Part shown: piece after piece, positions 19,422 through 27,150 of the stretch
Layout of the letters: each line of letters begins with the position of its first letter
Position numbering within the stretch: position 1 is the first letter of the stretch
Source of the DNA: Escherichia phage vB_EcoS_HSE2
Reading direction: 5' to 3' (one strand)
DNA length: 41,317 nt
Sequence record: MG252615.1
Translations under genes and position numbers: made by a program
The notes under the pieces: model-generated
The model's database searches: none
What the model was told of the DNA's origin: nothing
Seen by the model: only the letters and a program-made list of their open reading frames with translations

Positions 19422-19498
19422 CAGAGTTTGACTTCATTTTCCTGGCTATTGGAGCTGGTGCGATTTGGGGTGTGATTGACGCTCTCCGTAAAGGTTGA
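19418..19498 (+). CDS. Tiny hydrophobic peptide (26 aa) overlapping endolysin stop
   Basis: Verified by hand: MTEFDFIFLAIGAGAIWGVIDALRKG; ATGA overlap. Confidence 0.3.
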   Translation: MTEFDFIFLAIGAGAIWGVIDALRKG

Positions 19499-21109: not shown

Positions 21110-21255
21110 TTGAATTTGATGATGTTTTATTTGAGGAATACCGCGGAACGGTGTTTTTGACTGTGATGTACGGTGTTTACTCAAAGTCCTTTAACGGGTT
21201 TTCGAAAGCAGATTGCATAAATCAATTACTGCAATGGGTGGTAAGCCGAAAATAG
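21106..21255 (+). CDS. Hypothetical small protein (49 aa)
   Basis: Hand-translated; ATGA coupling; followed by terminator. Confidence 0.35.
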   Translation: MIEFDDVLFEEYRGTVFLTVMYGVYSKSFNGFSKADCINQLLQWVVSRK

Positions 21256-21264
21256 CCACACCAC

Positions 21265-21287
21265 AAGCCCTCTACGGAGGGCTTTTC
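21265..21287 (+). terminator. Rho-independent terminator
   Basis: Stem AAGCCCTC/GAGGGCTT, loop TACG, then TTTT. Confidence 0.65.
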
Positions 21288-21382
21288 TGTACATCCCGCC
21301 CAATTCCCTTATATAATCCCTTTAGACGCGTAGGGCGCGTCTGGTGCGCTCTGATGGTCAGACGCATATGCAAGGGGATTCT

Positions 21383-21928
21383 ATGAAGCTGAAACTTAAG
21401 CAGCCATCGCCAGAGGTGGTGCAAGCTGCACATGAAGAAGCTGTTAGCGCAAACCGTCGCCGTAAACGACCGCGCGGCAAACAGAGTCTTTATCAATCAT
21501 CCCGTAATTCCGCCGCGTTGTGGGACCCGGGCTATTGCGATGCATTAATCAAGTTCTTCGACCGCACGTCATGGGAACTTGTGCCTACATCTAAGGGTGA
21601 CGAACGTCCGCTGATTCAGGATAAACCGCCGTCACTGGCCCGCTTCGCCTTGCACATCGGCGTCACTATCCCGATTATTAAGCTGTGGCTGCGTGAGATT
21701 CCCGCATTTGCCGAAGCCTATGAAACAGCGCAGGCACTTGAAGAGGCATACTTCACCGAGACAGGCGCGGCGGGTATCTCTGCTACGTTTGCCGCAGCTA
21801 AGCTAGGCCTTAGCAAAGAGAAACCAGTTGAATCCACCGAAGAAACAGCACCGACTGAGATTGTTTTCAGTGTTGCAGAGCCTGTAGGTAAAATCGTAAC
21901 AACGAATATGGGCGAGGTAGAGGAATGA
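21383..21928 (+). CDS. Putative terminase small subunit
   Basis: Immediately upstream of, and overlapping, the large terminase; AAGGGGA Shine-Dalgarno; basic N-terminal region. Confidence 0.5.
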   Translation: MKLKLKQPSPEVVQAAHEEAVSANRRRKRPRGKQSLYQSSRNSAALWDPGYCDALIKFFDRTSWELVPTSKGDERPLIQDKPPSLARFALHIGVTIPIIKLWLREIPAFAEAYETAQALEEAYFTETGAAGISATFAAAKLGLSKEKPVESTEETAPTEIVFSVAEPVGKIVTTNMGEVEE

Positions 21929-24688: not shown

Positions 24689-24712
24689 ATAGCCCCGAAA
24701 GGGGCTTTCTTA
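24689..24712 (+). terminator. Hairpin terminator/attenuator after portal
   Basis: Stem AGCCCC/GGGGCT with GAAA loop, then TTCTT. Confidence 0.5.
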
Positions 24713-26255: not shown

Positions 26256-26285
26256 AAAAAGCCCCGCTATGGGGCTTTATTTTTA
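26256..26285. terminator. Bidirectional intrinsic terminator
   Basis: Stem AAAAGCCCC/GGGGCTTTT, loop GCTAT, A-run before and T-run after. Confidence 0.7.
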
Positions 26286-26354
26286 TATGAACATCGCGGT
26301 GATAGCCGCAGCCGATACCCACAAAACAAAATAAAACATCACACTATTTGTCAT
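26283..26354 (-). CDS. Hydrophobic peptide (23 aa), third gene of lipoprotein cassette
   Basis: Verified by hand: MTNSVMFYFVLWVSAAAITAMFI; ATGA overlap with lipoprotein stop. Confidence 0.25.
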   Translation of the reverse strand: MTNSVMFYFVLWVSAAAITAMFI

Positions 26355-26695
26355 TTGCATTTCTCGTCGTATGTTTGTTGTAACTGCGACAGACGATTAC
26401 CGGCTGTCATCTCGTCCATAGAAGGCCCGGCGCCCGTGTCCATAAAGAACAGCGGAACAATCAGGAATGCGCCTGTAACACCGAGTACAACGTTAGTACC
26501 TATTTGCTTATTAACACGGTGCGTAGCGTTGGCTTGAGCTTGTTTTGTCGTGGCGATTCTCGATAGTAACTGATTACATGTTGCCGTTGTATCCCCTGCC
26601 TGATAAACCTGTAAAGCCGGGTCTGGCAACGACCTTACGCAACCACTCAAACAAACGGCTACAACACCCGCTACTGCTAATTTAATATATTTCAT
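26351..26695 (-). CDS. Lipoprotein (114 aa) in a moron cassette; candidate superinfection-exclusion / receptor-masking factor
   Basis: Signal peptide with lipobox L-S-G-C; opposite strand to flanking head genes; own promoter and terminator. Confidence 0.55.
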   Translation of the reverse strand: MKYIKLAVAGVVAVCLSGCVRSLPDPALQVYQAGDTTATCNQLLSRIATTKQAQANATHRVNKQIGTNVVLGVTGAFLIVPLFFMDTGAGPSMDEMTAGNRLSQLQQTYDEKCK

Positions 26696-26915: not shown

Positions 26916-26944
26916 TTGACTTTTCACCAAAAATGTGCTAAGCT
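26916..26944 (+). promoter_or_regulatory. Sigma70-type promoter preceded by 16-bp palindrome AACTATTCGAATAGTT
   Basis: TTGACT, 17 nt, TAAGCT; palindrome at 26902..26917. Confidence 0.45.
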
Positions 26945-27150
26945 CCACCTGAGCTTGTGAAGTATGAACAAGCGACCGCGGCGTGGCAGGTAACGGAGCC
27001 GGACGTTAAGTCCGAGTGTAGTTACGCTGACGCGTTCGGAAGGGCCATACTCTATTGCTTGTGTAAAAAGTAACTGGTTTACTGAGATTACGCCGTTTCT
27101 ATGTTTAAATGATAAGGACTAGCGCCCCGCTTTATGGCGGGGCTTTACTT
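26945..27150 (+). ncRNA. Candidate small RNA or structured leader (about 200 nt) between promoter and terminator-like hairpin
   Basis: No ORF longer than 9 codons; starts after the 26916..26944 promoter and ends at hairpin 27124..27143 plus U-rich tail. Confidence 0.3.
27121..27150 (+). terminator. Terminator-like hairpin just upstream of the spanin RBS
   Basis: Stem GCCCCGC/GCGGGGC, loop TTTATG, then TTTACTTAT. Confidence 0.45.

Follow-up and report, generated by a model that had tools for sequence, protein, structure and literature searches.

Stable hairpins at the 5' terminus of a transcript are known to block 5'-end-dependent decay by RNase E. In the insertion sequence IS10, only externally initiated transcripts can mask the ribosome-binding site (RBS) of the transposase gene. 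The packaging (pac) sites of phages typically lie next to terS, the gene of the small terminase subunit, as in P22, SPP1 and Sf6, and SPP1 pacL overlaps promoters. The putL RNA of phage HK022 consists of two stem-loops that start within a few nucleotides (nt) of the +1 of a sigma-70 promoter, and its 5' duplex, A3GACG7:C15GUCU19, is reported to be essential (PMC9378689). The locus considered here, immediately upstream of terS in Escherichia phage vB_EcoS_HSE2 (MG252615.1), shares traits with each of these systems. It carries two adjacent hairpins, H1 and H2, behind a promoter-like sequence. The window is the whole stretch of 41,317 nt that was analysed; positions are counted from its first letter and refer to the plus strand unless the minus strand is named. 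That the two hairpins form a conserved RNA leader behind a promoter is highly probable, and as an RNA structure the leader is well supported. Taken jointly with the leader and with a function as stabiliser and insulator, it is moderately likely that positions 21265-21385 constitute the transcription and translation control region of the packaging operon, that is, of terS, terL, the portal gene and the genes downstream. The leader is without an Rfam family, and no description of it was found in the literature searched.

The two-hairpin leader upstream of terS

The TATAAT hexamer at 21312-21317 and the hairpin-capable sequence AGACGCG-TAGGG-CGCGTCT at 21324-21342 are both present as the original prediction described them, and its placement of the 5' end of the terS message behind this promoter-like TATAAT holds. 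H1 (21324-21342) pairs AGACGCGU with GCGCGUCU around an AGG triloop, giving 8 bp that include a U.G pair, with pair probabilities of 0.87-1.0, and begins at the predicted +1. A single nucleotide, G21343, separates it from H2 (21344-21367), a hairpin of 5+5 bp with the sequence GUGCG-C-UCUGA UGG UCAGA-CGCAU, in which the outer stem GUGCG/CGCAU and the inner stem UCUGA/UCAGA are set apart by a bulged C21349 and the UGG triloop occupies 21355-21357. The leader is thus 44 nt long, both of its hairpins are capped by NGG triloops (AGG in H1, UGG in H2), and an unstructured Shine-Dalgarno (SD) sequence and AUG 21383 come next. H1 and H2 together are worth -23.1 kcal/mol and the minimum free energy (MFE) is -24.1 kcal/mol; the MFE structure holds both hairpins, which in this predicted fold coexist.

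The sequence features alone are not beyond chance. Perfect 7-bp hairpins number 31 in the window (17.3 +/- 4.6 in shuffles), and AGACGC occurs 31 times genome-wide where 24.5 +/- 5.2 are expected, so that it is not enriched. Three AGACGC copies within 42 nt are locally unusual, with ~0.015 such clusters expected as calculated from the genome-wide density; two of the three are the two arms of H1 and the third is the 3' arm of H2. No further copies of the two-hairpin motif or of AGACGC clusters were found in the window. The region is judged to be real because it is conserved and covaries in relatives.

By its sequence, the window is a Kagunavirus-like siphophage: the 1.4 kb around the element are 96.6% identical to Escherichia phage BUCT823 and 89-95% identical to many Kagunavirus records (Guernseyvirinae). 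Relatives were gathered by scanning viral contigs and GenBank phages both for TerS and for the sequence pattern. Conservation among them was a check that the original prediction had itself named, and the layout upstream of terS proved to be kept in ten clades, ten being a minimum for the enterobacterial phage clades that carry it. They comprise Kagunavirus, Jerseyvirus, Cornellvirus, phiEap-2-like phages, two Dhillonvirus types and the clades E, F, G and H, of which E matches the Klebsiella phages 37P2 and VLCpiS11a, and F, G and H are uncultivated. The shared order is a GC-rich terminator with a T-run, TATAAT or TACAAT, 6-8 nt, H1, 1-3 nt, H2, SD and ATG; clade F has no GC-rich terminator with a T-run.

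This layout is retained across considerable divergence. TerS of the window is only 27-29% identical to that of Cornellvirus, phiEap-2 or Dhillonvirus (four clades aligned), and the element is 59-82% identical to that of other clades, with the flanking DNA at a background of ~50-55%. When the region was compared with phiEap-2 and Cornellvirus by blastn, the aligned part was only query positions 55-133 or 55-125, which is the element. A covariance model was built from 22 sequences; it matches each positive locus exactly once, on the plus strand and always just 5' of terS, and its single match in the window spans 21312-21371 with 81.9 bits. The motif was not found upstream of more distant TerS homologues (L222-L261), and 5,426 complete E. 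coli genomes hold no prophage or host copy of it. Rfam gave no relevant match at E <= 10 in 21150-21500 and none at gathering score across the whole window.

The stems change among clades in a way that preserves pairing. The inner stem of H2 takes five forms (UCUGA/UCAGA, UAUGA/UCAUA, GCCGA/UCGGC, GCGUA/UACGC and ACCGA/UCGGU), with covariation at four of its five pairs. Its outer stem occurs as AUGCG/CGCAU, AUGU/GCAU, GUGC/GCAU, CAUG/CGUG and CCAG/CUGG, the last being a complete replacement in clade F. H1 ranges from AGACGCGU/GCGCGUCU via AGGUGGU/GCCACCU to GUGGCCC/GGGCCGC, and compensatory and G.U-preserving changes are seen in all clades. For ten loop-proximal pairs in 14 sequence types, all 140 of 140 cells are canonical in a loop-anchored hand alignment, compared with 72% in shuffled partners, and none of 5000 shuffles reaches this value; several positions show three to five pair types. 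RNAalifold predicts 9 loop-proximal pairs, 6 of them with compensatory changes. In the model alignment, H1 and H2 are 86.9% paired versus 79.7%, with a covariation score of 0.247 versus 0.161 (0/500 shuffles), and every slid control falls below the observed pairing. Since MAFFT and model-based alignments mis-register the divergent clades, the pair counts from the model alignment are conservative, which is why the loop-anchored hand analysis was added. Among eight clade representatives, MFE folds contain both hairpins in 5/8, H2 in 7/8 and H1 in 7/8.

The cells that depart from Watson-Crick pairing are also telling, with 21 G.U and only 2 A.C. Only pairing in the plus-strand RNA explains this bias, which therefore places the structure at the RNA level. 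Against the variable stems, both triloops and the two apical H2 pairs (GA-NGG-UC) are near-invariant. AGG and UGG are the two forms of the H1 loop, apart from a GGG in one Kagunavirus sequence. For the H2 loop, which is otherwise UGG, clade G shows CGG and a single Kagunavirus sequence shows UGA. The apical pairs of H2 are A-U followed by G-C, with U-A in clade E.

As a separate observation, the 5' arm of H2 in Jerseyvirus, Cornellvirus and phiEap-2 (e.g. L041, L051, L052) has the sequence TATGAT, a hexamer that resembles a -10 and lies ~25-30 nt past the predicted start. It recalls the sigma-dependent pause element discussed for putL; Kagunavirus has TCTGAT at this place, and the hexamer is absent from Dhillonvirus too.

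Proposed function and alternative explanations

On its 5' side the leader is preceded by a candidate intrinsic terminator and promoter. The terminator (21265-21290, plus strand), recognised as an inverted repeat with a predicted fold, has the form AAGCCCTC-TACG-GAGGGCTT followed by a T-rich tail (TTTTCTGT), and it closes the upstream cluster of small open reading frames (ORFs), which is nin-like and holds early or middle genes. Its stem covaries among relatives (CCCTC/GAGGG, CCCGC/GCGGG, GCCCGCC/GGTGGGC), and the homologous site in phage Snoke carries a terminator annotation. The sigma-70-type promoter (21288-21317) combines a -35-like TGTACA at 21288-21293 (4/6 matches), an 18-nt spacer and the -10 TATAAT at 21312-21317; a sigma-70 scan gives it 10/12 consensus matches, although matches this good occur near chance frequency. 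All ten clades have TATAAT or TACAAT as their -10, always 6-8 nt before H1, while the spacer sequence is variable. Elsewhere the candidate -35 is TTGCCT-17 (phiEap-2, Cornellvirus, clade E) or TTGCCA-17 (clade F), clade H has no clear one, and Dhillonvirus carries an extended -10, TGTTATAAT. A new transcript would start at about A21324, the base of H1. Promoter-like sites further upstream on the plus strand, at 19495 and 19617, could supply read-through RNA.

A second inverted repeat encloses the leader. The segment ATATAATCCCTTT (21311-21323, plus strand) covers the -10 hexamer and the discriminator and is the complement of 21372-21384, from the SD through the AUG; the two arms are 13 nt long and 85% complementary. 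Folding of 145 nt places this anti-SD pairing at the base of a three-way junction that also contains H1 and H2 (z = -3.16). The clades have versions of their own, namely CACCUG:CAGGAG, CCUUAA:UUAAG..GG, AACCUC:GAGGUU, CCUGA:UCAGG and CCCC:GGGG. Cognate duplexes reach -7.8 kcal/mol among clades, compared with -5.9 +/- 0.6 kcal/mol for permuted ones (P ~0.001), and the complementarity is significant versus shuffles in Kagunavirus, Jerseyvirus, phiEap-2 and clade E. The predicted probability that the RBS is unpaired is 0.66 in the short and 0.31 in the long transcript in Kagunavirus, 0.77 and 0.38 in phiEap-2, 0.52 and 0.19 in clade E, and 0.80 and 0.39 in clade G; in six clades it is roughly halved in long versus short transcripts.

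These features suggest the following order of events. The intrinsic terminator would close the upstream cluster, and the sigma-70-type promoter would then start the mRNA of the packaging operon. Together with H2, H1 would fold at the 5' terminus of this mRNA, protecting and marking it; protection from 5'-end-dependent decay is expected because H1 sits at the extreme 5' end. Read-through RNA would fold into the three-way junction with the terS RBS masked; RNA from the operon's own promoter would be free of the anti-SD arm and translatable, an arrangement that would amount to fold-back insulation. Since the expected +1 is 3' of the anti-SD arm, such masking would be confined to read-through RNA. 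In addition, a trans-acting factor may recognise the leader, as is suggested by its invariant triloops and by the equally invariant G-C/A-U pairs at the apex of H2. Promoter, leader and stabiliser/insulator role as one whole statement carry a modest balance of confidence, and the stabiliser-plus-insulator function specifically is put forward as a tentative proposal.

Several points weigh against this proposal. The -35 is poor in several clades, and the promoter may thus need an activator. No transcription start site (TSS), structure-probing or expression data for these phages were found in the literature searched, which for these genera holds nothing specific on promoters, transcription starts or pac sites. 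Were the TSS further upstream, no transcript would lack the anti-SD arm, and the reasoning on insulation would have to be revised. The folding energy of the leader from the putative +1 is unexceptional (z = -1.26). The anti-SD pairing is weak or absent in 4/11 types (F, H3, Cornellvirus and the second Dhillonvirus type), and RBS accessibility is unchanged in F, H and the second Dhillonvirus type. Finally, a role as stabiliser or insulator leaves the invariant triloops and the H2 apex (GA-NGG-UC) unexplained.

This last point leads to the most likely alternative, in itself unlikely, in which the NGG-triloop hairpins are bound by a protein of phage or host origin, perhaps by TerS itself in an autoregulatory manner, and this RNA-binding protein controls translation or stability of the packaging mRNA. 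Invariant loops and two invariant apical H2 pairs on freely covarying stems are the usual sign of loop recognition, and the motif accompanies only one TerS subfamily, being absent upstream of the more distant TerS homologues. However, no candidate protein was found. The adjacent upstream gene varies: the window has a NinH-like gene and an ORF of 49 aa, Cornellvirus a 'transcriptional regulator' and Dhillonvirus a large ORF. The presumed helix-turn-helix recognition region of TerS appears to vary among clades while the loops are constant. Nor do the loops fit the GGA core of CsrA sites; such sites were considered and set aside, as the loops are without GGA.

A role in antitermination is a weaker candidate and rather improbable. 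The nascent two-hairpin leader would bind E. coli RNA polymerase, as put does, and resist pausing and termination through the terminator-like hairpins of the operon. A still bolder version, and a slightly less probable one, is a second and much smaller class of factor-independent, polymerase-binding RNA with put-like function, spread broadly among virulent enterobacterial siphophages, that would dock on the polymerase via its NGG triloops and the AGACG:CGUCU duplex in common with putL. Placement and gross architecture are as in HK022 putL, which was located at L181:740-813 (minus strand) with its numbering checked against PMC9378689. Nucleotides 2-7 and 11-19 of putL (UAGACG and GGCGCGUCU) are identical to the H1 region of the window at 21322-21342, and the shared AGACG and GGCGCGUCU, putL nt 3-7 and 11-19, include the essential duplex. 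Furthermore, three clades retain a GC-rich, terminator-like hairpin behind the portal gene, which makes a read-through function at least coherent. Against this, the covariance model has no match in the HK022 immunity region at E <= 1, and local alignment to putL is marginal (P ~0.05) in three clades and not significant in six, with none significant for putR. Homology to HK022 put is ruled out on these two grounds, the missing model match and the alignment that is not significant. A put RNA is ~70 nt long and contains a triple helix and a bulged U28 besides its long irregular stems, whereas the present leader is two simple hairpins in 44-48 nt. A put-like alternative pairing that the window would allow, of G10-G14 with C24-C28, is not kept in Jerseyvirus, as read from the aligned sequences, and the operon is only ~5 kb long with a single weak internal terminator. 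The lambda boxA and boxB elements were considered as well and set aside, as they are not conserved here.

Reading the inverted repeats as duplex DNA is disfavoured, and the chance that they serve as a pac or terminase site, or as the operator of a late regulator overlapping the promoter, is small. A position beside terS is typical for pac, a single copy per genome fits it, and symmetric half-sites can also appear to covary. Yet one-sided changes nearly always create G.U in the plus strand (21 versus 2 A.C), a preference that DNA recognition would not produce. The loops are invariant though TerS is only 27-29% identical, the stems change completely among clades while the TerS fold family is constant, and the third AGACGC is lost in most clades. 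The genera concerned are reported to package by the headful mechanism without defined termini (PMC10783031, PMC9022532, PMC9825357); there is no submolar pac fragment in Jerseyvirus, and PhageTerm finds no termini in one Kagunavirus phage (PMC10783031, PMC9825357).

Many database records start inside the element, and these starts are deposit conventions. The first letter lies at TATAAT in SSL-2009a, EP23 and SO-1, at the RBS that precedes the GTG start in Snoke, at the GTG/ATG itself in many records, and at GAUGGU|C in three records of LM40P1. In the European Nucleotide Archive (ENA), the assemblies of Dhillonvirus LM40P1 (L098/L099, three records) and Kagunavirus LF7074P1 (L100) start exactly 29 nt 5' of the ATG of terS and of terL, respectively. 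As both assemblies begin 29 nt before a terminase ATG, the GAUGGU|C break is a pipeline convention and not a physical end, and record starts as physical ends, of the kind that would speak for pac or cos, are ruled out. Two other DNA-level candidates were set aside: N4-type DNA hairpin promoters, given that the G.U bias speaks for RNA, and a LexA box at CTGTACA, which has no second half-site.

The original prediction had favoured mutually exclusive hairpins, with H1 and a GCGUCUG:CAGACGC helix as the two states of a translational switch. CAGACGC at 21359-21365 is indeed the perfect complement of GCGTCTG at 21337-21343, which gives 7 bp, and the direct-inverted-direct arrangement of AGACGC is there in the letters of the window. 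That arrangement is Kagunavirus-specific, however, its third copy being lost in most relatives, and the switch itself is very improbable. The best fold with the alternative helix enforced has -15.8 kcal/mol, ~8 kcal/mol worse than the two-hairpin fold at -24.1 kcal/mol, and the helix has a pairing probability of 0.0. It also shows no covariation or other compensatory support: it is 72.5% paired in relatives versus 73.0% in shuffles, and 381/500 shuffles reach its pairing. In Jersey-, Cornell-, phiEap-2-, Dhillon- and other clades CAGACGC becomes CATACGC, CATAAC or CGGCGC, and the very changes that are compensatory for H2 destroy the alternative helix there. H1 would, moreover, be the first to form during transcription.

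Translation of terS from GTG 21344, with the conservation due to an N-terminal extension or leader peptide, is hardly credible. Many GenBank records use this start, and in Kagunavirus, Jerseyvirus, Cornellvirus and phiEap-2 itself the frame is open and continues into terS. In L061/L068, however, it is disrupted by an insertion of 1 nt, the Dhillonvirus codon is out of frame at 43 nt from the terS ATG, clade E has an in-frame TAA, and clade F has neither AUG nor GUG there. The substitutions compensate for one another in the stems and are non-synonymous when read as the putative peptide. The invariant GAUGGUC is accordingly read in differing frames among clades, since the 21344 frame is shifted, stopped or absent in them, and an N-terminal extension or upstream ORF from 21344 is ruled out by these frame breaks. 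The codon forms the first pair of H2. Both GTG 21344 and ATG 21383, which the original prediction offered as starts, are present and the former is in frame, but the frames of relatives contradict it. The SD AAGGGGA (21372-21378) and the start ATG (21383-21385), by contrast, are kept in all clades, and TerS N-termini align from the equivalent of ATG 21383, which judging from these alignments is very probably the true start.

This touches on annotation practice. GenBank and IMG/VR records (e.g. L026, L035, L043, L046, L047) start terS, and often the genome, at a GTG/ATG inside H2; such terS annotations are, on comparison of the sequences, probably 13 codons too long, and the upstream GTG/ATG in many GenBank records is very probably the wrong terS start.

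Gene context and other signals in the window

The element lies between a cluster of small plus-strand ORFs on its 5' side and the packaging genes on its 3' side. The small ORFs include one for a NinH-like protein of 86 aa and a 49-aa ORF that ends at 21255. On the 3' side, terS (21383-21928, plus strand, 181 aa) is the first gene of the packaging operon terS-terL-portal-MuF-like-Ig-like, which has a length of only ~5 kb. Domain matches identify terL (Terminase_6N/6C), the portal gene (DUF4055) and the next gene (Phage_Mu_F). Inside the operon, in a short gap after the portal gene, stands the terminator-like GC-rich hairpin AGCCCC-GAAA-GGGGCT followed by TTCTTAT (24691-24712, plus strand). Its position is kept in three clades, Kagunavirus, phiEap-2 (L076 8990-9009) and Jerseyvirus (L041 6262-6282), and it is relevant for the antitermination reading only.

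Further signals were noted elsewhere. The end of the packaging operon is separated from a minus-strand ORF of 114 aa (26351-26695), for which Pfam gives no match, by a bidirectional terminator at 26258-26278, AAAGCCCCGCTATGGGGCTTT flanked by T-runs on either side. On the plus strand, 26917-27150 opens with a promoter-like TTGACT-17-TAAGCT that is followed by ~180 nt without an ORF, and the stretch ends in a strong intrinsic terminator, GCCCCGC-TTTA-TGGCGGGGC plus TTTACTT, directly 5' of an SD and ATG 27169. It looks like a non-coding RNA of ~200 nt or an attenuator-type leader of the next morphogenesis block, and has neither an Rfam nor a tRNA match. The minus strand carries three identical near-consensus promoters, TTGACA-17-TATAGT, at 11786-11758, 9179-9151 and 5398-5370, which are probably early promoters of the replication or early region.

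Comparison with described systems

The phage groups that carry the leader are very common virulent coliphages and phages of Salmonella and Klebsiella, and the control of their late and packaging genes is unstudied according to the literature searched. Among these groups are Kagunavirus, Jerseyvirus, Cornellvirus and Dhillonvirus, and phage therapy and biocontrol make use of many of them. The leader, 44 nt that are better conserved than the protein they precede, could offer a handle on the timing and insulation of terminase expression. If the invariant loops do bind RNA polymerase or a dedicated protein, they would represent a new small RNA-protein module that is usable in synthetic phage design.

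The known systems with which the leader may be compared each match it in part. SPP1 pacL and the pac sites of P22 and P1 likewise lie beside terS, with short repeats and promoter overlap. Here, in contrast, pairing is biased to plus-strand RNA by G.U, the repeat count is not conserved, and the genera are not known to have a defined packaging start. The nut (boxA/boxB) and PR'-qut sites of lambda are likewise promoter-proximal signals that open a long, terminator-containing phage operon. The present leader has no conserved boxA and carries NGG triloops where boxB has a pentaloop; neither an N-like nor a Q-like gene was identified, and no terminator follows directly.

Closer in architecture, HK022 putL and putR are RNAs that act in cis, as the leader would, and they too are made right behind a sigma-70 promoter in a phage of E. 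coli, as two side-by-side stem-loops 1-3 nt from the +1. Homology in sequence and structure to these RNAs, with their conserved A9, U28 and G35 and their triple helix, was not found for the leader, which precedes the packaging operon of virulent phages, whereas put follows the early promoters of a temperate phage.

The proposed function finds its counterparts in two other systems. In the fold-back inhibition of IS10/Tn10, as is predicted here, a segment just 5' of the element's own TSS complements the RBS. The arms of the present element are, however, joined by two intervening conserved hairpins in a three-way junction; it belongs to a phage operon behind a terminator, and its predicted pairing strength is unequal among clades. 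Stabilising leaders of the ompA type likewise place a stable hairpin at or within ~2 nt of the 5' end, as is predicted for H1. Such a stabiliser needs no set loop sequence; in the leader upstream of terS, the loops are invariant.

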